Source: Bilabrum cf. latius (taxonomy: Eukaryota). From it: DNA of 64,000 nt. This document shows, piece by piece, positions 9,201 through 35,220 of the stretch; the stretch's first letter is position 1, and every line of letters begins with the position of its first letter. The DNA is taken from positions 1 to 64,000 of the forward strand of contig CBCXTV010000001.1 in the NCBI GenBank assembly GCA_965178125.1, in the 5' to 3' direction. The position numbers and the translations under genes were made by a program. The notes under the pieces are model-generated. The model saw nothing but the letters and a program-made list of their open reading frames with translations, made no database searches and was not told the DNA's origin.

Positions 9201-9375
9201 CGCCAAGGACGCTCACTGTCAGGCACACACAACGCGCACAGAATTCGTCATTTCGCGTTCAAAGCCTGCCAACGACGTGGCGCTTGGCGAAATGTGGTGG
9301 GTGGCGAAGATGTGGTACTTCGCCGTGCCTTTCTCTATGACGGCCAAGCGTGCATTCGCCATCGCGCTCGGACGC

Positions 9376-14300: not shown

Positions 14301-17300
14301 TATCGAACCTCGCGAAGCATGCGTGGATCGGCTACTCGTAGTTCTTCACGCCATCGCGAAACCCCAAGGTGACGCAGATGGCCATGTTAGCGGGGTCAGA
14401 AGCACCGAGAATGGTCAGCCTCCAGCGCGGAAACTCACCTCATGCACAACTGCGAGCGCCTCTTGGACGTGCGGACCTATCCGGCGCACTGGGTAGACAA
14501 CACATTTGTGGTCCCCTTCCACGTGGGCATGGGCCTAAAGTGGTATCTCATCAGCCCGGAGGGGAGGAAGGCGCTCCTGAAGATGCGGATCCCGAACCGA
14601 AGCTTCGAACGCTGCGTCTGGCGCCGCATCTTCGACACGTTCCAAGGGCCGGTATGTAATGTCCGTCGTGATGTCCGTGTGCGCGGCCCTGAGTTGGGGG
14701 GTTGTCTCGTCTGGGAAAAAACAGAGCGCGTGCCCATCTCCTACGAAGACTTGTGCGGTGTTCACGAGCACGCCGGCGAAACCTCGAGTTTTGGCATCAA
14801 GATCGTGTCGCGGCCAGGCTGTACGACGGCGGCAAGAAGACGGAGAAGGAGGATGCTCACGGTATCGCCCTGATCATCTGCACGACTTCGTGGGGCTCCA
14901 TGACGTAACGGCGAGCGAGAACATTGACTGGTGGCGTGGCTGGAGGATCTCGGGAACACACGGCGGGCGAGCCGTTTTTCAAAAGGAGCACGGGTCCTTC
15001 GGGACGCCATTTCACTTACGGCGGGCGAGCCGTTTTCCGAATGGTGCGGGGGTCCTACTGATGCACACGGCGATCGCTGGTTCACTCACGGCGGGCGAGC
15101 CGTTTTCCGAATGGTGCGGAGTCCTCCAGATGACCACGGTGATGGGTGGCAGCATGTCATAGGCGCGCCGTCGGAAGCTTCCCCTTCGAGTGCTGCCTAA
15201 AACTGAGAAACCTGGAGATCCTAGCATCGTATGGAGGCAAGAGGTAACACCTTGGGGTCCGTTCTCCGCTTCAATTCCTGTCCCAAATCCGATTCCCATT
15301 TCGAGACCGAAAAAGGTGACCCGGAAAACGACGGTACTTATTTCTGAACCGTTTTCCGGACGCTTTCCGGGTCTCCCATGTGACCGCTTTTTGCGTACCG
15401 AAACACGTTCCGCGCGTGAGGAGCAGATGCGGATCTCCGCGGGGTCCTATTTGTGTCTTTTTTCGGGGACGAAATCGGGCGCACTTCTCGTGCCGATTTG
15501 TGGTCGTCTCTGAAACCGGCTGCGAGTCGGGAAAGGTGCCCGAGATGCTTGTGTCCTTGGCTTCGTATTTCTCCGCATATTCTTCAAACGCGGGCGGCAG
15601 TGGCTCCTGCGCGGGAGCTTCCCGAGTGGGTCCGTCGTGCAGTGCGCTGGGTAGGTCCGCAGGTCAAGGAGGCGCTCGCAGTTATAGACGTAGGTGGAGT
15701 TTGCGAGCTGCCGGCCGACATGCTCATGTGGTGACCGGAGGTCACCACATGAGCATGTCGGCCGGCAGCTCGCAAACCCCACCTGCGTCTATAACTGCGA
15801 ACGCCTCCTTGACCTGCGGACCTACCCAGCGCACTGAGCAGACAACGCATTTGTGGTCCCCCTCCACGTCGGCATGGGCTTGAAGTGGTACCTCAGGAGG
15901 ATTTCACTTGCGCCGGCCCCCAGGATTTCGCCAAAAATGGCCGATCCGCACAAGGAATTTAAGTTGCGGCGACACAGCTCGGACCCTGGCTTTTTTTTGG
16001 CTGTTTCGGGGCCCCAAGAGGGCTCCCGGCCCCAAAAAGGGCAAAACGCGAGGTTGTGGTGGAAAAAATGGGCCCCAAGGAGTCTCCAAACGACGCAAAA
16101 CGCCACGTTGTGGTGGATTTTAGAGCCCCTAAATCGCCCAAAAAAGACGCAAAACGCCACGTGGTGGTGGATTTTAGAGCCCCTAAATCGCCAAAAAAGA
16201 CGCAAAACGCCACGTTGTAGTGGATTTTAGAGCCCCTAAATCGCCCAAAAAAGACGCAAAACGCCACGTTGTGGTGTTTTTTTTGAGCGTTTTCGGGGGG
16301 CTCGGAAGGGGACCCCCCCAGGATTTGGCCAAAAATGGCCGATCCACACAAGGACTTTAAGTTGCGGCGACACAGTTCGGGCCCCGGTTTGTTTTTGCGG
16401 TTTGGGGGCCCCGAGAGGGCTCCCGGCCCCAAAAAGGGCAAAACGCGAGGTTGTGGTGGAAAAATGGGCCCCAGGCAGCCCCAAACGACGCAACACGCCA
16501 CGTTGTGGTGGATTTTAGAGCCCTAAATCGCCCAAAAAAGACGCAAAACGCCACGTTGTCGTGGATTTTAGAGCCCTAAATCGCCCCAAAGAGACGCAAA
16601 ACGCCACGTTGTAGTGGATTTTAGAGCCCCTAAACCGCCCTAAAAAGACGCCAAACGCCACGTTGTGGTGTTTTTTTTGAGCGTTTTGGGGGGGCCCGGA
16701 AGGGGACCCCCCCAGGATTTGGCCCAAAATGGCCGATCCACACAAGGAATTTAAGTTGCGGCGACACAGTTCGGGCCCCGGGGTTTGTTTTGCTGTTTGG
16801 GGGCCCCAAGAGGGCTCCCGGGAGGCCCTAGAGTGGCCCTTCTCCGCTTCAATTCCTGTCCCAAATCCGATTCCCATTTCGAGACCGAAAAAGGTGACCC
16901 GGAAAACGACGGTACTCTCCGTCACTCCATCTGGCGGCGAAAATTGCCTCAGTTTCCGGTCCCCGATTCCGGGCCCAGGGACCCCCGAAATTCCCGATTC
17001 CGCGCAGTGCCGAAAGCTCGACATAAACCACAAACACGACACACAACACAACACGATAGCGCCTCCCCACGCGCGGGATTGGGTCCTTCCGCTCGCTGCA
17101 TGTGAGCTGCAGTGTGTTCTTGCCGGGAATGTCACTGGAAGTCGCGCTGCAGTCTGCTCAGGGCGCCTTATGACCATGAAGGCGTCTCAGCACCCGCGAC
17201 GGCAAGAGGGGGCACGCACGACGTTGCGAAGCACCCGCCCTGGGTGAAGAAACTGCGTATCCACAGGAGTCACGTTCAGGTGCGCGAGAATTGGAAAGGC

Positions 17301-19640
17301 GGGGTAACTGGTGCAGAGGAGCTTGTTCGCAGCGCGGCTTCCACCAGCGCCGCTGACGGTAAGATGCATCGGTCTCGGTACATGAGTCGGCACGGTGTTG
17401 CGTGATTGACTTCACGATGCGGGAGTGTGCAGCCTTCCGCAGCGGGAGAATTGTATCTCCCCACGACCGCCGAAAAAAAAAAGAAGGCTATGCTGGACTC
17501 GTTCCAGGGAAGGCTATGCGATGAGTATCTCTAGGCGCTTTCCGGAAGACCCACCCACTACACGCTGGTCAGCCCTCCCAAGCGGGAGTGAACCGCGGAT
17601 CCGCGGGCCCGTGAGCGCTGCTGCTACGATCATTTCTGCCCGTTTGACTCTCGCCCACTCTTGCCGTGACCAAAGACGCGCAGATCCTTATGACGCATGA
17701 CACCTCGTCGAGGTGTCGAGACTGCCTCACATTCCCGTTACAAAGACCCACAGCACTGCGACAACGAAATCGGTCACGAAGAGAGCAAGAGGCCGCGCAC
17801 CTGAGCATCACAAAAACCCCGAGAGACATAAACAACACCGTCCCGTGAAGTCCCTGCGACGAGGGGATGCTAAGCGGCTCCCACGGCGGCTCCTCTGCGG
17901 GAAAAGCTGCCGCAGACCTCGAGATGGGATGCACATGACTGCGAAGATTGCGGAACTCGTCCGAAGCCGGTCGCACGAGGGTCACAGCGAATGGAGGCAT
18001 ATCTATGAAATAGAGTCTGCGTGCAAAGCAGCATTCCAACGATCGTCCGCATTCTTCCGAGCAAATCCTTGGGAGCACACATCCTGCGGACGACATCTCT
18101 TTTCTATCCACCCCAGCGTACTCCCCGCACACACTTCTCGCGAATGATTGAGAATTCTGTGCGGCACATGTAATATCAGGCTACCATGATACGCGGAATG
18201 GCGTGCTATTGCTCGCACGTTCGTGCGCCCCCTTCCGAATGCGCTTACCACATCACTATGTTCGTCGGCAACCGTATACACCGTAGGGGTCTTCCCTCCG
18301 ACACCAAGCGTACACGACTGGCCGTAATAGCGCAGCGTAGATGTTTCGGACGTCGCCCAGGACAAGTGTCGACGCCCGGTTCGTCACGATCACTACGTGT
18401 GCACTTCACTCACCGCCCTCCAGCCGCTAGACTTCTTTTGGAGCGCGACATCCTACGACGCGCTATGACACGTAGCCGTAAACCGCAGACGGCCTCGCGT
18501 TCACTGCTTGCAGCGCAAGAGCGTGAACAAGAACCGCCCGCGTGGCACACCTTCGCAGGCGCGGAAGACAAAAAGTTCCTTCTAAGCTTGTATTCGGGTC
18601 CGAAAGCCAAATTCCACTTCGGGGTCGAGAAGGGCGACCCGGGAAATCACCGTACGCTCTGTGAATCCATTTCCCGGGGAAAGTCCCCGAGTTCCCGCTA
18701 CCCGGTCCCAGGCCCAGCGACCCAGGAAAGTTCCCGTCCCCCCGCATGCGGAAACCTCCCACGAAGCACGCCCACCTCACGCTTCACACGCAAAAGTCCA
18801 GGAGTCAAATCCATTCCGGACCCAGCAGTTCACCCCCCGTGACGATTGGGAAAGGCTCTTGCACACACCTTCTCGTCCGAGCAGTCTATGGAGCACACAC
18901 CTGTCTTCGTTGCCTTTTCCGGCCAAAAATGCAGGGAGTTCGAAGGGGAAGTAGCAAGCGCGGAAGACCGCTTTCGAAACGCAGGTGCTCAGGGAAAAAC
19001 AACCAGAGCGTCCCTGATCCTCGGCAGAGCCGTCCAGGAGGGACGGGCACGGACGGGCATCGCAGATCTTGCAGCGCCACCATTCGCCGGGATGGGCGAC
19101 CGGACGAGGGCGACCACAAGTACGTAGCGTGCGACGTCCGTCAGTCGCCATGTTGCGCTGATTCGCTTTCGCGGCACGACTTCCAGGGCCGGCCTTACTC
19201 ACTCCTCGGAGTCCGCGTGTGGATTCTCCCCTGCGCATGATCTGCCGCTCTAGATGCTACACAAAGATCCCGCTCGGATGACCCCCTCTGTGCATTCTGC
19301 AAGATTTTACGCGCCTCCATTCAATGCGCGAAGCATGCACCGCAGCAGTCTGAGTCCGGTGACCACCTTCAATAGCGTGGGACAAATTCCGTCCGCGATG
19401 TGCATTCGGGCATGCTCCCCTTTCCGAGTCTCTGTGACCCGTAGTGCGTCCGCGGCCAACGACTCAGGACTCCACGATGGTACGCACGAGTTGCATTCCT
19501 TGCACGAAGCGTGCGGAGAGAAAGCGATGCTCAGACATCGAGGCGCTTGGAGGGTCTGCACGCGACATGCTTCGAGAGGCCATGCAAACATGCGAAACCA
19601 GAACTGAGGTTCCTCATCGTTCCTGCTGTCGAGCGCTCAA

Positions 19641-22373
19641 TTGGGGCATCGGATCAGGACGAAGCTCGCGAAGAGAGGGCGCGGGTGTCCCCATCCAAAA
19701 ATCCGCCGCCTTCAAGGCTCATGTTCCCGGATCCTGCATTCGCGAGTTTCGGGAGCAGAAGTGCAAGATCGCCGCTGGACACACAGCGCATGCCATTTCC
19801 CGTCTCTGGAGATGTCGGGCTTCCAGGCGCAATTCGGACACCATCGCCAGGACCTCGGGAAGATGACATGTCTGCTGATCTGCAGGGAAGAGTCCCGCTT
19901 CGAGGAGTGGCGACAAAAAAAAGGGGCGCGAGAACTCCACGAGCACATGGGAGCGGTCCTTCGGCTCCCCAATCCAGTGTTTCCGCAGACCGACAGGGAC
20001 CCAGATGGACGCGACATCGTCAAAGACCAGGCCCTCTTGGATATCTTCTCCGGCAAGATAACGGACTGGAGCAAATACAATCCGGCCACTGTTGGGGCGA
20101 TCCAATCCCATCGAAACGCATGGCTGTGGGCTGAGAACCACACGCCGACGGAATGGCTCATGGTTGTCGAAGATGATATCGAACCTCGCGAAGCATGCGT
20201 GGATCGGCTACTCGTAGTTCTTCACGCCATCGCGAAAAACCCCAAGGTGACGCAGATGGCCATGTTAGCGGGGTCAGAAGCACCGAGAATGGTCACCCTC
20301 CAGCGCGAAAACTCCACCTCCATCCACAATTGCGAGCGCCTCTTGGACGTGCGGACCTATCCGGCGCACTGGGTAGACAACACATTTGTGGTCCCCTACC
20401 ACGTCGGCATGGGCCTAAAGTGGTATCTCATCAGCCCGGAGGGGAGGAAGGCGCTCCTGAAGATGCGGATCCCGAACCGAAGCTTCGAACGCTGCGTCTG
20501 GCGCCGCCTCTTCGACACGTTCCAAGGGCCGGTATGGAAGTGGGGAGATTGCCTCCGCATGACATCTGTGCTGGCAGCCAGCCCGGTCCTCGCATCGACT
20601 CCCGAGAGCATGGACACGGAGTGGGGGGGCTCGGGACGACGAAGTGCGGATGCAGGGCACAGTATGAAACCGTACATAATGGTCGACCCGAGTGACGACT
20701 GGACTCTTGGCGAGCGATTAAACACATTGTCCGTCGTGATGTCCGTGTGCGCGGCCCTGAGTTGGGGGGTTGTCCTCGTCTGGGAAAAAACAGAGCGCGT
20801 GCCCATCTCCTACGAAGACTTGTGCGGTGTTCACGAGCACGCCGGCGAAACCAACACGTTCGTCCACCTCCTCCAGGACAAACGCGGCGGGTCGTATTCG
20901 TACTTCCTGAGGTACGGAGACATCCGCATCCACGTGGTGCAGCCGATGATGTGCATCCCCACCCTCGACAGAATGCTCGACATGGTAGCCCTGAAGAGGC
21001 CCAAGATGAACACCCTGCCTCCCTTGAAATGGCAGACCGCTCGATGGATCCAAGTCAAGCAGAAGTGGATCGATAAACTCCACACGGAGATGCCGGGGGC
21101 CGAGCTGCCCTCATGGCTGGAGTGGCCACCCTCAACCCACGCGCTTGTCCTCTGCGACGACAGGGACTTGGCGGCGCACTGCCTCGAGGGGAGATGCCAA
21201 AAGGAGCAGCAGGAGTGGATGAACGACGGGAAGGACAACAGCATCCAGCACTACATCCTTGAGGCAAAGCAAGCGCTGCAGAACGAGTTGGAAGACATCC
21301 TAAAGGGGGACAGCAGCTCACGCCTCGTCGTGATCCGCATGACAACCAAACTGCTGGGACAGGTCTGGGTGGACATGATGAAGCACCTCACGAAGCAGTT
21401 CGGGAAGCGCATCATAACGCCAACGTTCCTCCTCCCGAAAATGATCCCCAAAAGGAGGCACGACGAAAAGAACCCGAGTGATGATTGGATTACTTGGGGA
21501 GCATCCTTGGCGAAAACCGTGGGCCTCCTCACGCTCATACCTCCGATGCAAGTGCACTATCCCATCATGAGCTGGACCGTGGCCTGGAACCACTTCATGT
21601 TTAAGGGCAGGACTGCCACGGACACCGTGATCCCAGACGTCATCCGAACTCTGTACGCTCCGCACAAGAGCAACAGGAAGCAGCTCCTCAAGAACGGCCC
21701 GCTGTGCCAGACGAGGCGCGCCGTGCTGGACTCGCCCGCACTGCGGGACATTGCGAACAACTACTCAAGGGCCAAGGACAAGACCTATAACCTCTTGAGT
21801 TATTCCAAATGGTTTGCCGAAGAAGCCATGTGGCACATGATCAAGTACGCGGAAAGCACGCAGTGCATCGTCGACCCGTTCGTGAGCCGCCAGTGCCAAA
21901 AGGTCTTCGAGCACATCCCCTCGGACGACATCGGCCATGCGGACGCCCGGCTCCGGTACAACCTTCAGGATGCCGACGACCGAGGTTACCGCTTCAACGC
22001 GGGGCATCTCTACACCGCGGTGCAGGGCATCAAAACGGTGAACATCGCATACAACAAGTGGCTCACCGAGCAGGCACAGAGTCATTCCGAATGGAGCTGG
22101 GGCAAAACGTTCATCAAGCTTGTGATCAACCAGTGGCGGCAGCAGCAGGGCAGTGAGCCGTATGACGTGGACGAGGAGGAGTACGTGAGCCTTCCGCGGA
22201 CCTTCCACGGGAATTCGTTGAAGCTCGCGAGGAGCGTAAGCCTCCAGGACACGAGATCCTGCTCCAGATCGTCCTCATCCTATTCCAGGTCGCCCTCCAC
22301 CAACAGGACTGAGGCACAGCCTTCGAAGAGAGCGCGCCTGACCCCGGCACCCGGCGTAAAGCACGAGCCCTGA
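19641..22373 (+). CDS. Large glycosyltransferase-like protein: GT25-like N-terminal domain plus a fucosyltransferase-like domain; likely start ATG 19812 or 19863
   Basis: GAIQSHRNAW, LMVVEDD and YLISPEGRKALL match GT25 motifs (GCxxSHxxxW, xEDD, YxIsxxGAxxLL). LGERLNTLSVVMSVCAALSWGVVLVW resembles the GLGNR start of GT-B fucosyltransferases. Confidence 0.72.
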   Translation: MGHRIRTKLAKRGRGCPHPKIRRLQGSCSRILHSRVSGAEVQDRRWTHSACHFPSLEMSGFQAQFGHHRQDLGKMTCLLICREESRFEEWRQKKGARELHEHMGAVLRLPNPVFPQTDRDPDGRDIVKDQALLDIFSGKITDWSKYNPATVGAIQSHRNAWLWAENHTPTEWLMVVEDDIEPREACVDRLLVVLHAIAKNPKVTQMAMLAGSEAPRMVTLQRENSTSIHNCERLLDVRTYPAHWVDNTFVVPYHVGMGLKWYLISPEGRKALLKMRIPNRSFERCVWRRLFDTFQGPVWKWGDCLRMTSVLAASPVLASTPESMDTEWGGSGRRSADAGHSMKPYIMVDPSDDWTLGERLNTLSVVMSVCAALSWGVVLVWEKTERVPISYEDLCGVHEHAGETNTFVHLLQDKRGGSYSYFLRYGDIRIHVVQPMMCIPTLDRMLDMVALKRPKMNTLPPLKWQTARWIQVKQKWIDKLHTEMPGAELPSWLEWPPSTHALVLCDDRDLAAHCLEGRCQKEQQEWMNDGKDNSIQHYILEAKQALQNELEDILKGDSSSRLVVIRMTTKLLGQVWVDMMKHLTKQFGKRIITPTFLLPKMIPKRRHDEKNPSDDWITWGASLAKTVGLLTLIPPMQVHYPIMSWTVAWNHFMFKGRTATDTVIPDVIRTLYAPHKSNRKQLLKNGPLCQTRRAVLDSPALRDIANNYSRAKDKTYNLLSYSKWFAEEAMWHMIKYAESTQCIVDPFVSRQCQKVFEHIPSDDIGHADARLRYNLQDADDRGYRFNAGHLYTAVQGIKTVNIAYNKWLTEQAQSHSEWSWGKTFIKLVINQWRQQQGSEPYDVDEEEYVSLPRTFHGNSLKLARSVSLQDTRSCSRSSSSYSRSPSTNRTEAQPSKRARLTPAPGVKHEP

Positions 22374-23247
22374 CGACGAAATGCCGCAGAACAGCGCGTT
22401 GCGGGGAGACAAAGCTCCGCGGGCAACAGCAGAAGGCCGCCGAGCGCCGGAGTTGGAGGGTCACATAGTTCCATCGGTCCCATTCTCTCCGGAAGTCGCA
22501 TAGCACGTAGAGATCCGCATGCTCTCGGTGCATGAACGCTGGCAGCACGCAGTGCCAAAGTCGCAAAGCGCTTCAGAGTCACAAGTCCAGAAGTTCTTCT
22601 GCCAATGTGTGTCCTCTTCCCGCTCATGTGTGCATCCTCGGAGGAAGTCTGGAGATGACAGGACCCAGCACGCACCACATCAGAAGTCCTTTTTTAAAGC
22701 GGCATCGTCAGACAAAAATCTGGAACGCCCTTCCGCAAAAAAGAGTGCTGCCCACAGAAAAAAGGGAAACACCTGAGGCCCCAGAAGCCAAAGGGAGGAC
22801 CGCGAAGGACGCAGTTTCGAGGTCACACTTTCCGGGACCAGTTTTGAGCCCAAAAAGGGGTACACAAGAGGAAAACACGATGCGGGAGGCTTGAAATTGT
22901 CACCGAAAACGGGCCCAAAATTGGGACCCCTTTTTCGCAAATTTCGCAGCATCCAGACGACCCAGAAAGGCTTTCCCAGGCGCCGCCTCGAAGCTCACCT
23001 TCTCGCATGCAACCATGACGCAGCCCCACCTCCTCATGCAGACGCGTCTGAGAGACCCCGCAGTGGAACTTCTCCCATTCTGCGCAGGAAGCACTTCAGT
23101 CTACAAGGACCCGCGCACTTCTTACCGCACCACCTCCATGTGAAAGCACTTCTCGCGGAGTTTTTTTCGGGCCCAGGAATACAGCAACTGCCAGAAGCTT
23201 CGCACAGAAAAGCAGCCCACTCAGGAAGCAAACTCACTGCACACCCC

Positions 23248-23718
23248 ATGGCGAGCGACGCAGAACCGGAGGACGCAATGCGGCTCGACTCCCCTAGAGA
23301 TGCGGATGCAGCGGCGCCACCCGAAGCGACGGAGGCAGGATCACAGAAACCAGATCATGCGCAGCAGTTCTTCGAGGAGCCCTGCCCGAAAGACGGACAC
23401 ATGGAAGCGCCAGAGAAGACCGCCAAGACGGACGAACCTGGCGACACACCCTTGTTCGTCGACAAGTGGACGGCAGCGATCACACGCCTTACCGAGGAGC
23501 GCAAGGCTCTCAAGCTCGAGCAGCGGGCTAAAACGAAGGCCATCCGCAAAACCATCCGGCAGAAAAGGCGCACCATGAAGAACGCCAAAAAACTCACAGA
23601 CGACGAGCTCGCCCAAATCGTGCTAGACAGGAAGATCTTGCAGTTGGTGCAAAAAGAAGAGATCGCAGCACGCAGCTCCGCCAACTCCTCAACGAGCCAG
23701 GCGAAGTCGACCTTGTGA
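23248..23718 (+). CDS. Small protein with an acidic N-terminus and a Lys/Arg-rich coiled-coil C-terminus (frame open from 22891)
   Basis: MASDAEPEDA...RLTEERKALKLEQRAKTKAIRKTIRQKRRTMKNAKKLTDDEL; a diverged homolog of its 3' end lies at ~9376. Confidence 0.55.
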   Translation: MASDAEPEDAMRLDSPRDADAAAPPEATEAGSQKPDHAQQFFEEPCPKDGHMEAPEKTAKTDEPGDTPLFVDKWTAAITRLTEERKALKLEQRAKTKAIRKTIRQKRRTMKNAKKLTDDELAQIVLDRKILQLVQKEEIAARSSANSSTSQAKSTL

Positions 23719-24077
23719 GAAGCGCTTCCCGTGTTCAGAGAACCGAGGATTACAGATAGACCCCGCGTCACAGAAGCCATCGCAAGAGGGCAGAGCGTCA
23801 AGTACAGCGCAGTCTTGACGGACACAGATAGCCCGAGCAGCACAAAGCAGCGGATGCGGCTGCCCAGCGGAGTCGCGCACTCGGACAGCATACACGGGAC
23901 GTGCTGGCAGAAATCACTCAGTCCGCGAGCACCGTCGTCAAGAGCACGGGAGGGGCAGACTCGACATGCACAACTTTGAAAAACGGGAGGGCACGAAAGG
24001 AAGACAAATTTGGCATTAATCCTTGATTACCCCCGCCCCCCCGTAGAATCAGAGCGAGGAGATATGCTCGGAAGGTC

Positions 24078-24892: not shown

Positions 24893-27178
24893 ATGTCGGC
24901 TCCGTTCAAGGGCGAAACGATGAGTTTGTCTGTTGCCGAGTCGCTGAAGTCCCGAGTCGCATCCTGCTCCTGGGATCCCGCGTGGGTTTCCGCGAGCTGC
25001 GTGCCGTGCGATGGCCTCCCCACAAGCCAGGAGTCAGAAGCGTCCACGACGGCGACCTCTGCTTTGTTAGGGGTGTCCGAGGCGTCCCCAACGTGCTCGT
25101 GTGGCCTCGGTGTCTCCAATTCGGTGGCTGCAGCGCGCGCGGCCGCTGTCCCGAGTTTTGGCTTTGACGATGCGGAGAACGACTTCGACGCCAGTCTCGA
25201 CATGATTGAGGCCTCATGCGAGGTCGCATGCGAGGCAGAATGCGAGGGCGATCCGGGAGCCTGCTTGTTGTCCCACGGCAAGTCGAGCGGTCAGTGGCAG
25301 ATCGGCGTAGTGGGTGAACGAGTCCTTTATGAGGGCCTCAGCGTTGAGGGCGACATTCCTGGCCGCGTTGCTGCCTCCGAAGCGCTCGCCGCGGGTGTCA
25401 TCAATTTGGAACCCCCGTCAGAGGAAGTACTTTTGCCGGTGCAGCTTCTGCGGAGTAGTCAAGGTTACCGTGGGGTTCTGCCCATCGAGGATTCTGCGCC
25501 CGATGCGAGGGGGCGACCGCAGATGCTCATGCTCCCCGATTTCGTGCCCCGCGTGAAGAGGCGGCGTCTTCGGCAGAAGTGCGACCCTGCTGAGGGCGAT
25601 GCAGCACCGAGTCTTGCGGCTCATCTCGGACCTCCGCCCGCGGCTCGTGCCGCGGCCGGAGCGTCTGGGCCGCAGCGCTCGACTGGAAGGCCTTCGACTC
25701 GTCCTATTGATAGTGTCATCTATCGTCTCCTGCGGGTTTTCCCTGACGATTTCAAGTTGGCGTTTCCGGCGTCGGTGTCACACCAGCGGAAGCGGTGCCT
25801 CATCAGGGAGGCGCTTCGCAATGTACCCGGTGACCGCATGTGCATCTTGAAAGACTGGGCTGCGGGGGCGGAGGACACTCCTTGCCAGCTTCGTTTCGAG
25901 GAGCTCTTCCCGGAGCTTGCGCGGCAGCGGGACGAAGTTGTGAGGAATCCGGGATCGCACTCAGTGCCCGTGGGCGAGATTGTGCCTGCGTCCGACAAGA
26001 ACACGAGGCGGGGAAGGGCCGTGATGCTTACCTTTCACGGTCGCTGGGGTGTCGAAAAGGAGCCTGTGCGCGACATCATGTCGGCATCCGTGGCAAGGGG
26101 CGTCCTGAGGCGATTGGTTCTCGCGTCTCCGTTCTATGTGGAGCTTTGGGCCACCTTCAAGGCATGGGCGCAGGACATCGCGCGGCGGATGATGTGGCCT
26201 CAGCTGTCCATGAAAATGGAGCTCTCCCTGCACCGCAAGCACGCCGCAAACTTGGTGCACTTCCACGTATGCATGACGGATTCCGAGAAGTCGCATCGTT
26301 GTCGCGTGGCGGAGGATTTCATGTGGGCCGGCAGCAGGCCGAATGTCGTCTACGGCTCCGGGCGGTCAGCGAAGGCGCAGGAACGTGGCGCGTCGGAGTT
26401 ACACTATTATTGTCAAGCTCCCAAAGTCGGTGCGCTGCTTTGCGCCACGAACTACCGAGCCGGACGCGATTTCGTCGTCAATGGTAAGTTCGTGCACGCG
26501 TTGTTCGCACGCTTCAAAATGGATCCGGACGTCGCGAGAAGGGAACTCGTGGCGTATCGGTGTCGGGACGCCGAGAACTTAGTGCGCGCCATCGACTTCC
26601 ACATACAGAATACCGCGGAGAGGAGAGAGGTGTGCGCGCAGGCCGCGGTGCACGTAGTGACGAAGCTCCGCCCCTTTAAGGTGGTGCCCGAAGTCGAGAA
26701 GTGGCGCGAGAGCTATCGTCAGGAGTGGTTCGCGCACATGCGCTTCAAGTTCCTTGTCTTGGTGGGGGACTCCCGGTTCGGGAAGACAGTGTACGCGCGG
26801 AATCTCTTCGGGAGCGAAAGGACTCTTGTTGTGAACTGTCAGGGCAGTGTGGAACCTCCGCTCCGTGGCTTCGATCGAAGTCGGCATGTGGCCATTGTGT
26901 TCGACGAGGCAAATGCCCTGTGGGTCGTCAACAACAAACAGGTCTTTCAGGCTGGCCTTGACCCCTCCCTGCTCGGCCAGAGCAAGACGAACAGCCTCGC
27001 ATACTCTGTGTGGCTCCACGGTATCGCCCTGATCATCTGCACGAATTCGTGGGGCTCTGACGTGACGGAGTCGGCGGACCGCGATTGGCTTGACAACAAC
27101 TGCACGAAAGTGGAGGTGAAAGATCGGCTCTACTTCGACGAGGACTTGTTGTCTCTCACGGATGTGCAGAAGAGCTGA
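24893..27178 (+). CDS. rep: CRESS/geminivirus-like replication initiator (HUH endonuclease + SF3 helicase) with a long N-terminal extension
   Basis: Motif I VMLTF (~26021), motif II VHFHVC (~26255), motif III-like YYCQAPK (~26405), Walker A GDSRFGKT (~26765), Walker B IVFDE, motif C IICTN. Confidence 0.92.
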   Translation: MSAPFKGETMSLSVAESLKSRVASCSWDPAWVSASCVPCDGLPTSQESEASTTATSALLGVSEASPTCSCGLGVSNSVAAARAAAVPSFGFDDAENDFDASLDMIEASCEVACEAECEGDPGACLLSHGKSSGQWQIGVVGERVLYEGLSVEGDIPGRVAASEALAAGVINLEPPSEEVLLPVQLLRSSQGYRGVLPIEDSAPDARGRPQMLMLPDFVPRVKRRRLRQKCDPAEGDAAPSLAAHLGPPPAARAAAGASGPQRSTGRPSTRPIDSVIYRLLRVFPDDFKLAFPASVSHQRKRCLIREALRNVPGDRMCILKDWAAGAEDTPCQLRFEELFPELARQRDEVVRNPGSHSVPVGEIVPASDKNTRRGRAVMLTFHGRWGVEKEPVRDIMSASVARGVLRRLVLASPFYVELWATFKAWAQDIARRMMWPQLSMKMELSLHRKHAANLVHFHVCMTDSEKSHRCRVAEDFMWAGSRPNVVYGSGRSAKAQERGASELHYYCQAPKVGALLCATNYRAGRDFVVNGKFVHALFARFKMDPDVARRELVAYRCRDAENLVRAIDFHIQNTAERREVCAQAAVHVVTKLRPFKVVPEVEKWRESYRQEWFAHMRFKFLVLVGDSRFGKTVYARNLFGSERTLVVNCQGSVEPPLRGFDRSRHVAIVFDEANALWVVNNKQVFQAGLDPSLLGQSKTNSLAYSVWLHGIALIICTNSWGSDVTESADRDWLDNNCTKVEVKDRLYFDEDLLSLTDVQKS

Positions 27179-27582
27179 CGCCGGCCGCTGAGGTTTTCAG
27201 TCCGGTTCACACGAGCGCCGGAGCCGCAGCGGCAGCCGCTTCGGTGCTCCTGAAGGTCTAATGTCCTCAATGCGTTTCGTGTGCAAAAAGGATGTGGTTT
27301 CTACATGGGGGCATTCCGCAAGTTTCATGTGGTCCGTCGCGTTCGTCCGGGGGAGTGCTTGCCTAGTATTGGGAGCTTGCCTGACACACACACACGTGGC
27401 ACCCAGCCTGATGGGTTGCAAGTGTGTGTGTGTCTCCGCAGTGCCGCGGTTGGGACCCGGCGGGTCGTTTGCTTTTACGTCGCCGCGTCGCGCGCCGACG
27501 AGACATTTCTTGGTCTCAGAAGCCTCTGCTTCCGGTAGGCGCGCCGTGTACACTCGCGGGCCGAAGGTGGGTGCGTTGCTTG

Positions 27583-28275
27583 ATGGCCTACGTCGGTATC
27601 GCCGATGCACCGTATGTGCCCGTGGTTGCCGCGTCGACCTCCGAGCACGCCCCGGAGGGCGAGGTGGAGATGATGCTTGCGCCTCTTGCCGGAGATGTCG
27701 GTTTCAAGCGGCCTCGCGTGTTTCCTCCCGGTTCGCGACTTCTTCCTAAGTCGCCGGCCCATCCGGCGGTGCTCATAACAGCGCTCGGCAGTGAGGCACC
27801 CCAGGACACACAGTGCGTCGTTTGGTCGGACTCTAAGGCTTTCGACCTCGCGGAGTTTGTATGCTCTTCCTGCGGCTGCAATCGTGTCATGGCGGACCTG
27901 AATCATCGTATGCGTGATCGTCTCGTACGTCGCGTGCAGCGCACGCTTTATGCCGATGATTCTCCGTGCGGCAGGGGTGCGATTTCGTGTCGTGCTTGTC
28001 GCGAGAAGGCGCGCGACGCGGCGCCGAAGACGTCGATTATGAACGCGGCGAACAAGAAGAAGATCTCGGGAACTCTTCGCATGCAGTTGGATCTCATTGT
28101 AGAGACCGGGGAGCGGAAGGGTCAGCGTTGTACTGCGGAGAAAATTCTGACATTGGGAACGATGAAGCAGCACAGGGTTTTCGAGAGGGACCTTTACGAT
28201 GAGGCATGGCGCGGGCTTGTTCGTCTGTCTGGACGCGAGGCTTGGAGCGATGACGACTCGTGGTCTCCGCGTTGA
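27583..28275 (+). CDS. Cys-containing hypothetical protein (frame open from 27424)
   Basis: ATG 27583 MAYVGIADAP...; CSSCGC and CRAC pairs; directly downstream of rep on the same strand. Confidence 0.55.
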   Translation: MAYVGIADAPYVPVVAASTSEHAPEGEVEMMLAPLAGDVGFKRPRVFPPGSRLLPKSPAHPAVLITALGSEAPQDTQCVVWSDSKAFDLAEFVCSSCGCNRVMADLNHRMRDRLVRRVQRTLYADDSPCGRGAISCRACREKARDAAPKTSIMNAANKKKISGTLRMQLDLIVETGERKGQRCTAEKILTLGTMKQHRVFERDLYDEAWRGLVRLSGREAWSDDDSWSPR

Positions 28276-28475
28276 GCTTGCGTGACGGTTTTCCCTCTTA
28301 ACCTGGCCTCTTGCGTGGCGCTGCTTCCGCGTGTGGCCTGAGCGTGCGACCTGAGCGTTCGGCCTGCTGTCGCGTGTGACCTGAGCGAACGGGCGCTCGA
28401 CAGTATCCCGCGTTTGTTGCTTCTGGGGTTCAAGAAACTTGTACTTTTTGGGCTGTACGGTGGTCAGTGGTGCAC

Positions 28476-28608
28476 GGTTCGTTCGCAGCCTCCGCGTTGT
28501 TGGAAAGCTATGGTGGAGCATGGTTCTTTTCGCAGCCTCCGCGTTGTGATCAAGCTACGGTGGAGCATGGTTCGTGAGCATGGTTCTTTTCGCAGCCTCC
28601 GCGTTGTT
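28476..28608. repeat. Three imperfect ~47-57-bp direct repeats near the right end of B
   Basis: ttcgcagcctccgcgttgt occurs three times, with (aagcta.ggtg)gagcatggttc between copies. Confidence 0.85.
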
Positions 28609-29109
28609 GACACGTGAAAGCTACGCGAACGTGACCACACAATAGGCCATACCCCAGGTGAAATCCGGACTCGGACATCCAGACGAAACGGCATCATGCA
28701 CACTGTTGAACACACAAATGACACTGAGCTCCACCGTAACGTAACTTTCCATCACCACCTGGTTTATTTTCTCCGCGATGGCAGCTTGGCGGTGACGCTG
28801 TGTCTTCGGGCATGAAGGGGCAAATCTTTGATTTTTTGGGCCCTGTTTCGGTCACCGAAAAGTCGTGTGATTTCTGGCGCGCAGGAGGAGTGACGCAAGG
28901 TATTTCTGAACCGTTTTCCGGACGCTTTCCGGGCCTCCCATGTGACCGCTTTTTGCGTACCGAAACACGTTCCGCGCGTGAGGAGCAGATGCGGATCTCC
29001 GCGGGGTCCTAGTTGTGTCCTTTTTCGGGGGACGAAATCGGGCGCACTTGTCGTGCCGATTCGTGGTCGTCTCTGAGACCGGCTGCGAGTCGGGAAAGGT
29101 GCCCGGGAG

Positions 29110-30402
29110 ATGCTCGTGTCCTTGGCTTCGTATTTCTCCGCGTATTCTTCAAACGCGGGCGCACGTCTCCTACCGATTCGTGGTCGGTTTCCGAGGCCGA
29201 TCGCGAGTCGGGAAATGCGCCCGCGATGCGCTCTCGATCTCGGAAAGGGCGGGAGTCCGTTCTTGCATTCGGAATGGGCGGGGAGTTGCTTTTCCTGGGA
29301 GCATGTGCGAGATTCCTTCTCCGCGGGTCCTCTTTCGGCTTCGGCAGTCAGCAGCGCACTCTGCGGGAACGGCATTCTCCGAGTCTCTTTGCCGATGATG
29401 TCTGAGGAGAAACCGTCCGAGAGCATTGCTGTTTCCTTGGGAGACGGCCGCAATCTTCGTGCGCGTCGAGGCGCCGGTGATATGGGAAACGAGGGCGGCA
29501 TGTTGGCGCGCGAGGTCGACGCGCCGGCGGAGCACGCCGGCGCGGCGGCAAGCGTCGATGATTCGGGCGGCCCCCACATCGAGAGCGGCGGCGCGGAGGC
29601 GGCGTCCACGGGGATGCTCGGAGAGGAGAGCGGCAAGGCAGCGCCGAAGGAGGACGCCGAAGACGACGGCGGCAAGAAGACGGAGGAGGAGGATGCTCGC
29701 GGCGGTGGACGTGCTGTGGTGCCCGGAGGTAATGACGACGTATGGACCAACGCAGCAGCTTGGAAGGCGGGTGGCGGCGTGGCAGCCGGGGCGGTCTCTG
29801 GCGCTGATAGCTGGGATCTATGGGGGACCCCTGCGAAGTCGTCATGGGGGGAGACGTACGTGCTGCGGCAGGTCGCGTCGGAGCCGGCGGAGGAGGCGAC
29901 ATGGACTTGCAACGCGTGCCAGTGCTGCAAGCCCCGGTCGGCGTACTTTAAGAAGTGGAAGGACTGGATCCAACCAGTTTGCCGGGTGTGTTGCGACAAG
30001 TTCGACAACGCGACGCCGTGGTGGGTGTGGTGCAAGAGCTGCAAAAACGAGTATCCGGCGTACCGATTTCCCCAGATCCGCCGGAAGAAGGAGAACTTGC
30101 GCTATTTCTTCCCTGAGGACTGGTGCGCGAAGTGCCTGGTTGCGCGTGGCTGGAGTCTCCATGATGTCCGTTCCTCTGCGGGTGAAGCGAAGCGTTGGGT
30201 GCCAAAAGCTGGCGCGAATACCGGTGACGGCGACAACGACGCTCGTGCTCCCGCACGCGACGAGCTTCCTGCAGGAGGCGCCGCCTCCTGCAGCAACGCC
30301 GTGCGTCAGAGTTCTTCGCGTGACGAGGCCTTGGATGACATCAAGCGGGCCATGGAGCTTCTCCAGAATGCGGAAAGGTTCCTCCTCACGATGCCAGCGT
30401 GA
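29110..30402 (+). CDS. ZnF1, copy 2
   Basis: Near-identical to 1913-3205. Confidence 0.7.
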   Translation: MLVSLASYFSAYSSNAGARLLPIRGRFPRPIASREMRPRCALDLGKGGSPFLHSEWAGSCFSWEHVRDSFSAGPLSASAVSSALCGNGILRVSLPMMSEEKPSESIAVSLGDGRNLRARRGAGDMGNEGGMLAREVDAPAEHAGAAASVDDSGGPHIESGGAEAASTGMLGEESGKAAPKEDAEDDGGKKTEEEDARGGGRAVVPGGNDDVWTNAAAWKAGGGVAAGAVSGADSWDLWGTPAKSSWGETYVLRQVASEPAEEATWTCNACQCCKPRSAYFKKWKDWIQPVCRVCCDKFDNATPWWVWCKSCKNEYPAYRFPQIRRKKENLRYFFPEDWCAKCLVARGWSLHDVRSSAGEAKRWVPKAGANTGDGDNDARAPARDELPAGGAASCSNAVRQSSSRDEALDDIKRAMELLQNAERFLLTMPA

Positions 30403-31479: not shown

Positions 31480-32025
31480 GTGAGGAAGGAGAGGTGCGGC
31501 AGCATGACGCGGAACGAGGTGACGTCCTTTGTCCGCGATAGGTCGCCGCGTCGCGCGGTGGCGACCCCGCAGCGCCCAAACCCCGCCCCGCCTAGTCCTC
31601 ACTCGACAGCGGTGTCGAACCTGCAGCAGCGCTTCGAGAACATGCAGCAGCGTGCGGAAAGCTTGAGCGCTCAGCTGGAGTACGCCCAAAGTGTGATCAG
31701 GCTGCTCTCAGGCCTGTTGCGCGATGAGGCTCCTCGGTTCTATGCAGACTTTGATCCCGTGATTCGGCGTGCGATGTCTGGCGCAAGCGGCTCCGTTGCG
31801 GGTAGGTCTTTCCGTCTTGTGGACGGAGGCGTCATCCACGGACCTGACACAGCAGTCGCTGCTCCTCCGCGTCGTCTCATCGTTGAGGTGCGTACGGACT
31901 GGGAGATGACCGAGACTGCCTCAACTGTGCTGGATTCCTCAGGATCAGACGACATGGGTTCCGAGGACTCGCCGCCGCCGACCGTCGTCCTCCCCAGCGG
32001 CGCGGCGGGCGCCGGCGGTGCCTAG
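31480..32025 (+). CDS. Coiled-coil protein, copy 2
   Basis: Near-identical to 4284-4829 (H>Y change). Confidence 0.55.
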   Translation: MRKERCGSMTRNEVTSFVRDRSPRRAVATPQRPNPAPPSPHSTAVSNLQQRFENMQQRAESLSAQLEYAQSVIRLLSGLLRDEAPRFYADFDPVIRRAMSGASGSVAGRSFRLVDGGVIHGPDTAVAAPPRRLIVEVRTDWEMTETASTVLDSSGSDDMGSEDSPPPTVVLPSGAAGAGGA

Positions 32026-32563: not shown

Positions 32564-34201
32564 GTGAGCGATCTTCTGCCCGGTTCCTCACGCGTCATAA
32601 TGTCCTCTGCTTCGGTGCCGGATCAGCTCGCACGGATCAGTAAGGAGCTGAAGTGTCTCAGAGACGCGAGACAACGGGCGCGCAATGGGCTGCGCCATCC
32701 GTGGTTGCGCGCCATGGAGGCACAGGTCGCTGAGGTTATTCGTCATCACCCCGGCGGTGGCGAGGCAGCTCTTCGAACCTATGTCTCTCGTCAGTTGCAG
32801 AGTCGACAGGTTTCCACGCGGACGGCTTCGCAGGAGGAGTTTCAAAGGCAGGTCGATGAGGAGGTCGCGCTCACCATGAGGCGCCCAGCTGAGGCGTGGC
32901 AGCGAAATCCTCTTCGCTCATGTCATCGAGAGTCCGTGGCACGCGCAGAGACCTTTCTCGCCGAGGCTTCTGTCGTTGCTTGGATCGACCATGTGAACGA
33001 GCAGCGTGGGTGTGCTCCAACTGGGAACATGGTTTTCGCCATGCTTGCGAGGATGGGCGTTCGCGCGGGGAAGGACTCGGCTCGACGGCAGTGGCTCCTG
33101 CGCTTCCGTCGTCGTTGGCGGCTTCGGCATGGCCGATTGAAGAAGCAGCCCCCGGTAACACTCGATTACGTCAGACTCGCGTGTCGTGTCTTCTATCAGT
33201 GGATTGAATTCGCAGAAGCGCGAGTGCCCCCCAACCGCCGCCTCGTCTTTGTGAATTTCGATGAGTCCAGCGTGCCCTTTGCCTTTCCGGGAATGCGCGG
33301 GTACATCGCACCGAGGTCAGGAACGGAGCCCGCTTCGCTTGGTTCGCGCACGGAGCGCCTCGCCTCGAATAGCAATCGAGGATCGTACACCTTTCTGGGT
33401 TTTATTAGCGACTGCCCGGAAATCCAGCGACGACTCCCGCGTATACTCATCGGGAAGCACACGCGGCTGAGCAAGCGCTTGATGCGTGGGGCGCCGAACC
33501 AAATGGTGGACGGAATGGAAGTCTGGGCCCGAGAGAGCTCGTGGGTGACGCAGTCCCTCATGTTCGACATTCTGCGTCGGCTTTTCGCTTCTTGGATGGA
33601 CATTCAGCATGAGATCTATCCAATAGTGATACTTGACTGCGCGCCCCAACACATTTCCACTGAGATTGTGAACTTCGCACACGGCCTTGGCATGGATCTC
33701 GTGTTTATTCCTGGTCGACTCACCTTCCTGCTTCAGCCGTTGGACGTTCTCGTCTTTCAGCTTCTTAAGCGCGACCTTCGGGAGACGTGGATGCAGGAGC
33801 GCTCGCGTCATGAAGCGGGTCATGTCGATGTCTCTTGCCATCTCAGGGTTGTCGCTGAGTGCACGAAGAGAGTGCTCTCGTCTGGCTCGTGGCAAGGCGC
33901 TTTCGATATGACAGGCATTACCAGCGGCAGGCGCCGCTTGCATTCGACCCTACGGCGCTTGTTTGAGTGTGACATGGAGGACATCTCCAGCGATGCTCCG
34001 TCTGTCGACCAGCTCCGCTTCATCAGCAGTCCGCAGCAGCCTCTCCCGCACGATGCGCTCATCAACAGGGCCCCAGTCGCGTCCGGACACGCGGTCGACG
34101 GAGGCGTCCACGGTGGTAACGCTCGCCGCGTGCCTCGTGGCCGCAGACTAAACGGATGGACCCCCCGCGATCGCGCTCACCCCTCGGCGGCCATGCCGTG
34201 A
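32564..34201 (+). CDS. pogo-type DD35D transposase, copy 2
   Basis: Translation identical to 5368-7005. Confidence 0.92.
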   Translation: MSDLLPGSSRVIMSSASVPDQLARISKELKCLRDARQRARNGLRHPWLRAMEAQVAEVIRHHPGGGEAALRTYVSRQLQSRQVSTRTASQEEFQRQVDEEVALTMRRPAEAWQRNPLRSCHRESVARAETFLAEASVVAWIDHVNEQRGCAPTGNMVFAMLARMGVRAGKDSARRQWLLRFRRRWRLRHGRLKKQPPVTLDYVRLACRVFYQWIEFAEARVPPNRRLVFVNFDESSVPFAFPGMRGYIAPRSGTEPASLGSRTERLASNSNRGSYTFLGFISDCPEIQRRLPRILIGKHTRLSKRLMRGAPNQMVDGMEVWARESSWVTQSLMFDILRRLFASWMDIQHEIYPIVILDCAPQHISTEIVNFAHGLGMDLVFIPGRLTFLLQPLDVLVFQLLKRDLRETWMQERSRHEAGHVDVSCHLRVVAECTKRVLSSGSWQGAFDMTGITSGRRRLHSTLRRLFECDMEDISSDAPSVDQLRFISSPQQPLPHDALINRAPVASGHAVDGGVHGGNARRVPRGRRLNGWTPRDRAHPSAAMP

Positions 34202-35220
34202 CCTCGACCACGACCATGTCAGGGGCGAACGCGACTTCGTCAACCTCGAGCACGACCATCCCAGCGGCGAACGCGGCTTCCTCGATGGGATCCCTGACCC
34301 CGACGAAGCTTCCCCGACCTCGGCCACGTGAACCTGCAGGCGCATTCTTGCCCGATGTGCCCGCGCAGGTGGCGGCCTGCACGGCGTGGGCGCCACCGTT
34401 TCGTCGACCAGACAGCTCAGCCACTCCGGCGACGCGCGAGGCGGCAACGTCCACGTGCATCAATCCGTGGACCGCTCTCTCCTGGTATCCGACACCACCG
34501 CAGCCGACGGACCCCCCTTCCGACAGGCCTCGCGAGGTACCGAACCGGAGCTCCCGGCAGCAGCGCAGGCGTCATGCTTGGGGCGGCACGTGGGTGTTCG
34601 ACGACGCCATTACGCTCAGCGATTGCGGGTCGAGGGTGCAGATCGACGCGCCGCAGTCGAAGCTCTTGGCGATGGTCCTGCCCCGGAAGTCGGGCCAGTG
34701 GATTCCTCGTAGGCTGCGCTCGCGTACGATCTGGTATTTGGCTGGGGAGCAGTCGGCCGTGATCACCAACCTCAAGTGCCAGGCCTGCAGTCGGGTCAAG
34801 CACGCGGACAGCTTCAACCCGAAGAGCTTGCGTCGGGCTCAGTACTCGTTGCTGCATTCCCTGTGGCCCGGCTACATACGACGTACCGAGCGGTCTATTT
34901 GGTGCACGCAGTGTGCGGTGGAGGACCAGTTGATGCAGGGCAACTTTCCGGACGGCTACTGTTTCCGGATCCGCGCCACACTCGAAATTTGCCATCAAGA
35001 TCGCGTCGCGGCCAAGCTGTTTGCAGTGCACGACAGTAACGCTCTCTTCGAGCAGATCCCGCTGAGCTCCCGTGCGGCCATGGACGTGGCGGAGCAGTTG
35101 CGCCGATACTGGCAGGATGCCGTGTCCTCAGACGGCCAGAGCAACATCTTCCACAGCGACCACGTTTCGACAGACGACGACTCTGAGTTCGCACCGGGCG
35201 GACCGGAGAGCGTGCCGTGA
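34156..35220 (+). CDS. ZnF2, copy 2
   Basis: Translation identical to 6960-8024. Confidence 0.6.
   Translation: MDPPRSRSPLGGHAVTSTTTMSGANATSSTSSTTIPAANAASSMGSLTPTKLPRPRPREPAGAFLPDVPAQVAACTAWAPPFRRPDSSATPATREAATSTCINPWTALSWYPTPPQPTDPPSDRPREVPNRSSRQQRRRHAWGGTWVFDDAITLSDCGSRVQIDAPQSKLLAMVLPRKSGQWIPRRLRSRTIWYLAGEQSAVITNLKCQACSRVKHADSFNPKSLRRAQYSLLHSLWPGYIRRTERSIWCTQCAVEDQLMQGNFPDGYCFRIRATLEICHQDRVAAKLFAVHDSNALFEQIPLSSRAAMDVAEQLRRYWQDAVSSDGQSNIFHSDHVSTDDDSEFAPGGPESVP

Follow-up and report, generated by a model that had tools for sequence, protein, structure and literature searches.

How do a rolling-circle replication protein (Rep) and a DDE transposase come to lie side by side in one protist repeat, and which of the two moved what? 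The question is raised by a 64,000-nucleotide stretch of DNA from Bilabrum cf. latius (assembly GCA_965178125.1, contig CBCXTV010000001.1, positions 1 to 64,000 of the forward strand), the whole of which we call the window. A first interpretation, made from the letters alone (the sequence-only reading), took 16915-35220 as a single ~18-kb element that amplifies by rolling circle through a Rep of the CRESS type (circular DNA that is single-stranded and encodes a Rep) and integrates or excises through the transposase. We found that the Rep gene belongs to an 11,984-bp unit, element D, that ends short of the transposase gene. In our interpretation, which we regard as evenly poised between right and wrong, the window consists of nested copies from a single family of protist mobile elements that bears both a CRESS-type Rep and a pogo-like DD35D transposase, and D was joined to its present site by Rep-type nick-and-join. 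The sequence-only reading proved largely right in what it observed and partly supported in what it concluded.

Element D is bounded to the base

Self-comparison showed that three blocks, B, C and D, make up the whole 64 kb, with no ORF beyond them and a GC content of ~0.60 throughout, in the order B-C-D-B-C-B-C-D, with a period of 41,909 bp at 99.88% identity. Block B (10.1 kb; 1704-11802, 28901-38999 and 43611-53707, forward strand) occurs in 99.9% identical copies, block C (5.1 kb) lies at 11802-16916, 38500-43610 and 53707-58820, and block D (~12.0 kb) occupies 16917-28900 on the forward strand, with a partial second copy at 58820-64000. B and C form a 15.2-kb repeat unit that bears the transposase gene, and two of the three B-C copies lack D. 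The string described as one unit (16915-35220) consists of D and the first 6.3 kb of one B copy. Its left limit agrees with the left end of D at 16917, whereas its right limit, 35220, is the stop of an open reading frame (ORF), and a precise element boundary lies within it, at 28900/28901, between the genes for two cysteine-rich proteins, Cys and ZnF1. D ends 3.7 kb before the transposase gene.

Element D (16917..28900, forward strand) was seen as an 11,984-bp insertion with a glycosyltransferase-like (GT-like) gene, the small ORF cc1, an iteron and stem-loop region, the Rep gene and the Cys gene. In the same window, D is missing to the base at 1703|1704 and at 43610|43611, and a 96% identical paralogue of the D site, around 126|127, is likewise uninterrupted. 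Because this paralogous site is uninterrupted, the ancestral state is the empty one, and D is either an insertion or a unit that can be excised precisely. Matching between the copies halts exactly at 16916 and restarts at 28901, with zero shared bases at the junctions. We found neither a target-site duplication nor a TA at the D junctions; in this one insertion event, D lies between T and T. Transposases of the pogo group make staggered cuts and leave a TA duplication. With neither a duplication nor a TA, the D junctions do not show integration through a DDE enzyme, which was the route proposed from the sequence.

The empty-site joint (16916 to 28901, with 11,984 bases skipped) and the occupied left junction were both present in contigs from three public runs belonging to three studies, as were internal mosaic junctions of the window. 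The D:B depth ratio in the public-run contigs was near 1:2, as the window's own 1:2 ratio predicts. Since the same junctions and the same depth ratio recur in three independent runs, the structure is not an artefact of this assembly.

The sampled words of a D stretch (19000-28990) were also found more widely: 0.73-0.86 of them were present in runs under at least eight organism labels and from at least eight studies, and three of those runs have identical variants relative to the window. No RNA run was listed among them. Such a distribution would accord with a symbiont, parasite or contaminant that the samples have in common, not with many hosts. Run X12, compared with positions 15500-30500 of the window, had a lower share (0.35), with D-like pieces 95-99% identical to the window; the loose ends of these pieces were unmatched in the window, so they are copies in other contexts.

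The ends of D and its target are predicted to fold into hairpins

The left terminus of D (16917..16946, forward strand) consists of 3 nt, the 9-mer CGTCACTCC and then an imperfect inverted repeat. The right terminus (28871..28900, forward strand) consists of the inverted-repeat arm GGAGTGACG followed by 5 nt, so that D closes with the reverse complement of the 9-mer and those 5 nt. The 9-mer is confined in the window to D ends, with three matches, and stands in inverted orientation at the two ends of D. When the two ends were joined (60 nt, DNA parameters), they folded into an extended hairpin of -18.0 kcal/mol (z -4.4) with the join in an 8-nt loop. This fold was equalled by 0/300 shuffles and by 5/1000 random joins of window pieces.

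The site that D occupies is itself a potential hairpin. In its intact form (43593..43631, forward strand, with a second intact copy at 1686-1724), this target hairpin has a 12-bp stem with a bulge and a 12-nt loop; around D, its halves lie at 16899-16916 and 28901-28921, which places D in the loop between T and T. It folds at -11 kcal/mol (z -1.98) and was equalled by 11/200 shuffles, which is weaker evidence than that for the joined ends. The hairpin precedes the first ORF of the block with the transposase by 209 bp.

Two repeats near the insertion point are recorded here as side observations. The 6-mer GGTACT occurs before the insertion point and in the internal stem-loop of D; its 15 occurrences in the window are close to the composition estimate, and we gave it no weight. 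Just upstream of the target hairpin, at 16003-16821 and in the corresponding copies, lie 394-bp tandem repeats with 53-54-nt sub-repeats, which may be iteron-like.

D encodes a divergent CRESS-type Rep

All eight named ORFs of the string were found in place, on the forward strand and uninterrupted. In each of them, GC content fell in the order third, first and second codon position, with a third-position value (GC3) of 0.65-0.78, unlike three overlapping alternative ORFs (GC3 0.57-0.62). By composition, this is the pattern of coding sequence, as expected for the co-oriented gene string that had been described.

The Rep gene (24893..27178, forward strand) encodes an N-terminal extension of ~370 residues, an HUH nuclease and a superfamily 3 (SF3) helicase. 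Its Walker A motif, GDSRFGKT, is present as reported. Among 60 aligned relatives, the HUH residues H456 and H458, Y506, K511, the Walker B residue E672 and N718 of motif C are invariant, conservation is at least 90% for K631 (the Walker A lysine) and D671, and motif I has the consensus LLTWNG. The Rep core was modelled with a predicted local distance difference test (pLDDT) score of 94.2. A Foldseek search of the PDB placed AAV2 Rep68 (E 3.8e-7) and Vientovirus Rep (E 2.2e-6) at the top, over the whole length, and also returned E1, NS1 and large T antigen. In BFVD, the top matches were Reps of CRESS viruses, among them Genomoviridae, cruciviruses, a geminivirus and Kirkovirus, with E values as low as 1.2e-14. 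The helicase domain reached Z 10.4 against the PCV2 Rep ATPase and Z 10.8 against SV40 LTag, although generic AAA+ entries scored similar Z values. Language-model Atlas neighbours likewise pointed to CRESS-type Reps. By motifs and predicted fold, the window protein is a divergent CRESS-type Rep with a helicase of the SF3/AAA+ type, which upholds its description as an HUH-SF3 Rep and not a Helitron RepHel.

Sequence profiles did not recognise this protein. The window Rep matched none of the Pfam families, Gemini_AL1, Viral_Rep and RNA_helicase included; among the 60 relatives, 0/60 matched at the curated level, and one had a weak Gemini_AL1_M match (E 0.0012). Against the PDB, phmmer returned one chance match (E 0.91), and the 60-sequence profile found nothing below E 0.4. 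The profile searches suggested by the sequence-only reading identified the transposase as DDE_1; the Rep, for which Gemini_AL1 and helicase matches had been anticipated, was recognised by its fold instead.

Exhaustive HMMER searching found 1316 representative relatives of the Rep, 871 of them below 1e-10, all matching residues ~370-750. The 90% cluster of one relative (P0019, 38% identical) includes proteins of Cladocopium goreaui, and one variant of the family (P0210) occurs in 274 contig records as well as on large scaffolds belonging to a dinoflagellate genome. The 274-contig record means that the family is multi-copy in at least one dinoflagellate genome. Being large, multi-copy in a symbiotic dinoflagellate and invisible to Pfam, the family has probably been missed in protist genome annotation.

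Upstream of the Rep gene lies a predicted stem-loop (24141..24204, forward strand) with a 10-bp stem and an inner hairpin (-13.9 kcal/mol, z -3.81, equalled by 0/200 shuffles), together with four exact copies of the iteron GAGCACTAC (24240..24384, forward strand). The iteron occurs nowhere else in the window, and 0/100 shuffles reached four copies; both features had been noticed in the sequence and held under these comparisons. A 91% identical copy of the stem-loop is present in block B at 35477-35610, just after the ORF ZnF2. This 134-bp copy is bracketed by two copies of one 30-nt sequence (35447-35476 and 35646-35675) and has the look either of a small insertion flanked by a long duplication or of a template switch.

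Rep and transposase genes are linked in diverged loci

The transposase gene (32600..34201, forward strand) lies in block B. Its product matched Pfam DDE_1 with E 2.1e-11 (44.1 bits against a cut-off of 22), and D221, D346 and D382 are invariant in 8/8 aligned transposases. The 35 residues between the last two bear out the assignment as DD35D. For a DNA-binding domain of the CENP-B/Tc5 type, a match to HTH_Tnp_Tc5 (E 0.057, 13.8 bits) stayed under the cut-off of 22.2. The gene is surrounded by inverted pairs of just 19-20 nt (80-84%), which an estimate for 11-nt seeds in 28.5 kb places at chance level. We found neither terminal inverted repeats (TIRs) above chance nor a pair of TA duplications flanking the transposase in the window, which is without unique flanks.

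We scanned metagenome contigs with a seven-sequence Rep alignment and obtained 18 related loci, seven of which have at least 2 kb of flank (L001, L003, L004, L007, L009, L012 and L013). When the single Rep protein was used on metagenome contigs, it matched the search pattern 48 times without yielding a relative, and the 19 pattern matches among 2.9 million viral contigs likewise included no relative. In L001, L007 and L009, a transposase homologue, 26-28% identical to that of the window (E 1e-18 to 1e-23), lies within 4 kb of the Rep gene on the same strand. The adjacency was therefore seen in 3/18 loci, or in 3/7 loci with at least 2 kb of flank. The homologues of L001 and L007, both of which were scanned, were confirmed as DDE_1. 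The sequence-only reading had named, as one outcome that would refute it, diverged loci in which the two genes are never linked; in these three they are linked.

L007 and L009 keep the transposase-then-Rep order and a short gap, with Reps that are 49% and transposases that are 40% identical; L001 has Rep followed by transposase, as in the window. Pairwise identities of the Reps and of the transposases both group the five elements as the window with P0010/P0170, then L001, then L007 with L009, a match that would arise by chance in one of the 15 unrooted five-taxon topologies. Contig sizes added indirect evidence in two coincidences, the only ones among the relatives compared: a contig of 14,535 nt is on record both for Rep P0010 and for transposase P0170, and one of 25,927 nt for GT P0001, for Cys P0232 and for transposase P0167, all three identical or 98% identical to the window proteins.

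Searches of the 18 loci by tblastn and blastp for GT, cc1, Cys, ZnF1, cc2 and ZnF2 returned nothing below E 0.01, and Pfam searches of 20 other ORFs of these loci gave just the two DDE_1 matches and one low-complexity match. Terminal overlaps were present in 0/18 loci. The terminal-repeat comparison in L001 and L007 yielded chance-level pairs and internal tandem arrays only. In L001, a microsatellite-like array of ~1.1 kb with 8-9-nt units (3270-4340) lies between Rep and transposase, and arrays of ~145- and ~280-nt repeats lie downstream (9200-12033); the latter recall the repeats of block C and the microsatellite of a truffle element discussed below.

A scrambled region of the window may carry traces of the same association. 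The distal part of B and block C (38303..42592, forward strand) are patched together from D and proximal B in pieces of 29-1169 bp, of which nearly all have forward orientation, so the earlier statement that it draws on both the Rep side and the transposase side holds. Its mosaic junctions recur as loose ends in the three public runs. Because the patchwork combines D and B pieces, and B-C also includes the 91% stem-loop copy, B-C resembles an older relative, since rearranged, in which Rep-side sequence once stood beside the transposase, as it still does in L007 and L009.

Our reading is that Rep and transposase belong to one element family and that the present intact Rep module moved alone. 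The proposal that the two travel together is borne out by their adjacency and concordant divergence in three diverged loci; within the window they are separable, as the two B-C copies without D illustrate.

How D may have reached its site

The junctions of D, which lack a duplication, the ends, which are halves of a hairpin broken in its loop, and the target, which is a hairpin loop, together form the signature expected of nick-and-join by an HUH Rep. This signature parallels the recombination of rolling-circle replicons at their origins. We propose that D, as a self-contained 11,984-bp unit, would have entered, or could leave, the hairpin loop just upstream of the 15.2-kb transposase-bearing unit. 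Rep would nick the hairpin loop formed by the two ends of D and the hairpin loop in the target, and would then join the strands, with no duplication left behind. This scheme implies that a circular form of D would exist, and it leaves to the transposase the putative task of moving a larger unit or composite. No end-to-start joint of D, as expected of a circle or a tandem, was among the joints listed for four runs, although contigs cannot show its absence.

Several observations weigh against this interpretation. D provides a single insertion event, so the T^T site and the choice of a hairpin loop rest on n=1. The loop sequences at the two nick sites are unlike, whereas an HUH enzyme is expected to want similar nick sites, and a comparison of the joined ends with the target region (200 nt around each) found no homology, with scores equalled by 34/300 and 8/300 shuffles. 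The target hairpin is just modestly better than its shuffles. The canonical-looking origin, with its stem-loop and iterons upstream of rep, is internal and lies 7.2 kb from the ends of D, and these ends can equally be read as imperfect TIRs of 25-30 nt. As for the family linkage, 4/7 informative loci lack the transposase, and the link between P0010 and P0170 is drawn from equal contig sizes of 14,535 nt, not from sequence. The window has no unique host flank, so it does not set the limits of any larger element or its chromosomal location. A single insertion event and three linked loci offer little ground to build on, and given the single event, the unlike loops and the internal origin, we put the chance that Rep carried out the joining, as the junctions suggest, at about one in two.

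A bolder form of the proposal is that these elements constitute an undescribed class, in which a CRESS-type Rep acts as transposase or integrase and inserts a circular or rolling-circle intermediate scar-free into hairpin loops. The Rep would keep a lasting partnership with a DD35D enzyme, so that a single family would draw on two mobility enzymes of unrelated mechanism, with cargo such as a two-domain glycosyltransferase. We offer it tentatively and at present lean against it. If it were true, the Rep family of 1316 representatives would point to transposons of dinoflagellates and other protists that form a widespread but overlooked group. An intact CRESS-type Rep with an SF3 helicase and scar-free hairpin-loop junctions would be a third eukaryotic rolling-circle solution beside Helitrons and Replitrons, and such an element would directly bridge single-stranded DNA viruses or plasmids and transposons. 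The co-diverging linkage of Rep and DDE genes also raises the question of how two mobility systems divide their labour within one element.

Alternative explanations

A single composite is the alternative closest to the sequence-only reading. Here, D and at least the proximal part of B would be amplified together by Rep-driven rolling-circle replication and integrated or excised by the DD35D transposase, and the B-C copies without D would be deletion derivatives. The exact junctions of D, free of any duplication or TA, do not fit this scheme, nor does the uninterrupted state of the older paralogue of the target site, which makes the empty state ancestral. Two of the three B-C copies lack D, and the transposase gene has no above-chance TIRs around it. 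In its favour are the co-oriented linkage in three diverged loci with concordant divergence, the Rep-then-transposase order that L001 shares with the window, the pieces of both modules in the scrambled region, and the identical or 98% identical GT, Cys and transposase relatives that are each recorded on a 25,927-nt contig. On this evidence, we consider the composite unlikely.

The two genes could instead belong to independent nested transposons. A Rep element that prefers a hairpin in or beside a common pogo-like transposon would insert next to its transposase repeatedly, and the linkage would then reflect target preference. That D is a separate insertion, that the target hairpin precedes the first ORF of block B by 209 bp, that four of the seven informative loci have no transposase and that the gene order of L001 differs from that of L007 and L009 would all follow. 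Such insertions would not be expected to yield co-orientation in all three linked loci and in the window, or concordant groupings of Rep and transposase. The adjacency in L007 and L009 has moreover been kept at 40-49% protein identity, at which non-coding target sites would have diverged long before. We therefore regard nested transposons as distinctly unlikely, and continue to prefer a single element family within which the Rep module moved alone.

A non-chromosomal origin would make the window an episome or virus-like replicon of 41.9 kb, concatemeric or circular and assembled over 1.5 rounds, with one D and two defective B-C units joined at origin-like hairpins. The exact period of 41,909 bp at 99.88% identity fills the window, which has no host gene. 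The patchwork, with most pieces co-oriented, resembles defective DNAs known from rolling-circle replicons, the D stretch is found under at least eight organism labels at the word shares given above, and the nearest Atlas clusters of the GT-like protein come from Nucleocytoviricota. Among the window ORFs, however, Pfam recognised no capsid, packaging or polymerase gene, in keeping with the element's description as apparently capsid-less. No relative was found in the 2.9 million viral contigs, none of the 18 related loci had terminal overlaps, and the relative of the Rep family on 274 contigs and large dinoflagellate scaffolds is typical of integrated repeats. An episome is in our view quite improbable.

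An assembly artefact, in which repeats were wrongly expanded or joined and the insertion reflects two haplotypes or mis-joins, could appeal to the ~99.9% identity of all copies, but is scarcely credible given that the occupied and empty junctions, the mosaic junctions and the 1:2 depth recur in contigs of three independent runs.

Comparison with known systems

The closest precedent that we found for an element with both Rep and transposase is the "geminivirus-like transposon" of Tuber melanosporum, which according to its published account has a Rep-like ORF, two transposase ORFs, a microsatellite and 37-bp TIRs, with no obvious duplication (Liu et al. 2011, PMC3198968). Like that element, as described there, the present one is repeated, genomic and inverted at its ends, combines Rep and transposase and lacks a duplication, and L001 also has a microsatellite-like array. 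The truffle ORFs are reported as interrupted and lie within one pair of TIRs (PMC3198968). Here, by contrast, both enzymes are intact, the inverted ends bound the Rep module alone, and a large GT-like gene is carried. Our literature search found no description of this Rep family, or of a Rep-DDE element besides that of Liu et al. 2011. The earlier remark that the combination belongs to no described class therefore needs qualification, since, going by that account, the combination is not wholly unrecognised.

Among rolling-circle systems, the Cressdnaviricota and pCRESS Reps share with the window Rep the domain order, catalytic motifs and fold, and a stem-loop with iterons just upstream of rep. 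The differences are the 370-residue N-terminal extension, the size of the element (12 kb, not a few kb), the lack of a recognised capsid gene, its integrated and multi-copy state, and the lack of any curated-level sequence match to Pfam Rep or helicase families.

Helitrons insert between A and T or between T and T, according to a report on related transposons (PMC10288648). D resembles them in lacking a target-site duplication, in lying between T and T and in having hairpin-forming ends, all in one event. Short asymmetric TIRs are found in the Helentron group. Unlike Helitrons, in which a Y2 Rep is fused to a Pif1 helicase of superfamily 1B, the element here has an SF3 helicase, and the ends of D are not of the 5'-TC...CTRR-3' form. 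We rejected a Helitron RepHel identity for the Rep, its helicase being SF3/AAA+ by motifs and fold.

Replitrons are described as eukaryotic copy-and-paste transposons of algae and protists, mostly without duplications, whose Rep is nearest to the CRESS type (Craig 2023, PMC10288648). In that description, they have no helicase domain and have short direct terminal repeats (PMC10288648), whereas here SF3 is fused to the nuclease and the ends are inverted. A Replitron identity was rejected on these two differences, the SF3 domain and the inverted rather than direct ends of D.

With pogo and Tc1-mariner elements, block B shares the DDE_1 domain and the DD35D triad. It differs from them in that no TIR/TA pair was found around the gene, in the gene's place within a repeat of several genes and in its recurrent linkage to Rep. 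More distantly, a preprint describes HUH endonucleases in some double-stranded DNA viruses of 15-45 kb, namely Mriyaviruses and some polinton-like viruses (bioRxiv 10.64898/2026.06.19.733378). A survey of viral gene transfer in Symbiodiniaceae mentions neither replication-associated proteins nor Cressdnaviricota in its main text (PMC9651163).

Other genes and repeats of the window

The largest gene of D (19812..22373, forward strand) encodes the 853-residue GT-like protein, with an N-terminal GT-A (GT25-like) domain, a conserved C-terminal part of unknown fold and a basic tail. Members of its conserved family have ~850 residues, and eight homologues match it over their full length with 29-98% identity. 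The protein has an EDD motif, in which D122 is invariant. In the low-confidence model (pLDDT 51.6), residues 17-234 superpose on GT-A enzymes, with mimivirus R655 as the best match (Z 11.0, root-mean-square deviation 4.0, 181 residues aligned), and the top dozen structural matches are all glycosyltransferases or proteins of glycosyltransferase fold. Atlas neighbours are of the GT25/GT11 type with scores of 0.90-0.91, the nearest clusters coming from giant viruses (Nucleocytoviricota). Pfam Glyco_transf_25 was matched by 2/10 relatives (best E 0.0053) and not by the window protein. We therefore keep the original identification as a glycosyltransferase with moderate confidence, at the level of predicted fold and features only: the GT-A fold and the EDD motif favour it, and the Pfam family did not recognise the window protein.

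The remaining genes of D are cc1, a small basic helical ORF (23248..23718, forward strand, GC3 0.72), and Cys, the last gene of D, a cysteine-rich ORF of 230 residues (27583..28275, forward strand) that shares 60% identity with a homologue, P0233, and recurs unchanged as P0232. Cys was assigned to no Pfam family. In block B, ZnF1 (29110..30402, forward strand, GC3 0.71) is a Cys-rich ORF with a 98.3% identical copy in block C at 39646-40814, cc2 (31504..32025, forward strand) is known from the ORF list and its codon GC pattern, and ZnF2 (34156..35220, forward strand), also Cys-rich, overlaps the transposase stop and has a weak Stc1 match (E 0.051, under the cut-off). No Pfam family was assigned to cc1, ZnF1, cc2 or ZnF2, and BLASTP revealed no paralogy among Cys, ZnF1 and ZnF2 (best E 0.037). 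Rfam gave no matches in the window, and neither did a 15-nt spliced-leader relic motif.

Several small rearrangements involve pieces of the GT gene. A near-perfect palindrome of 197 nt (42337-42533; also 428-624, 15640-15836 and 57545-57741) has 97-nt arms that are 97% complementary around a 3-nt spacer. With these arms 80-83% identical to part of the GT gene (20301-20430), the palindrome is an inverted duplication of a gene fragment. At 38441-38727, four tandem 72-nt units derive from the 3' part of the same gene (21850-21925, 88-91% identity). Within the scrambled region, an open frame of 396 codons (39808-40998) joins ZnF1, a short piece of ZnF2 and a piece of GT in frame; this fused frame is probably a by-product of the patchwork.

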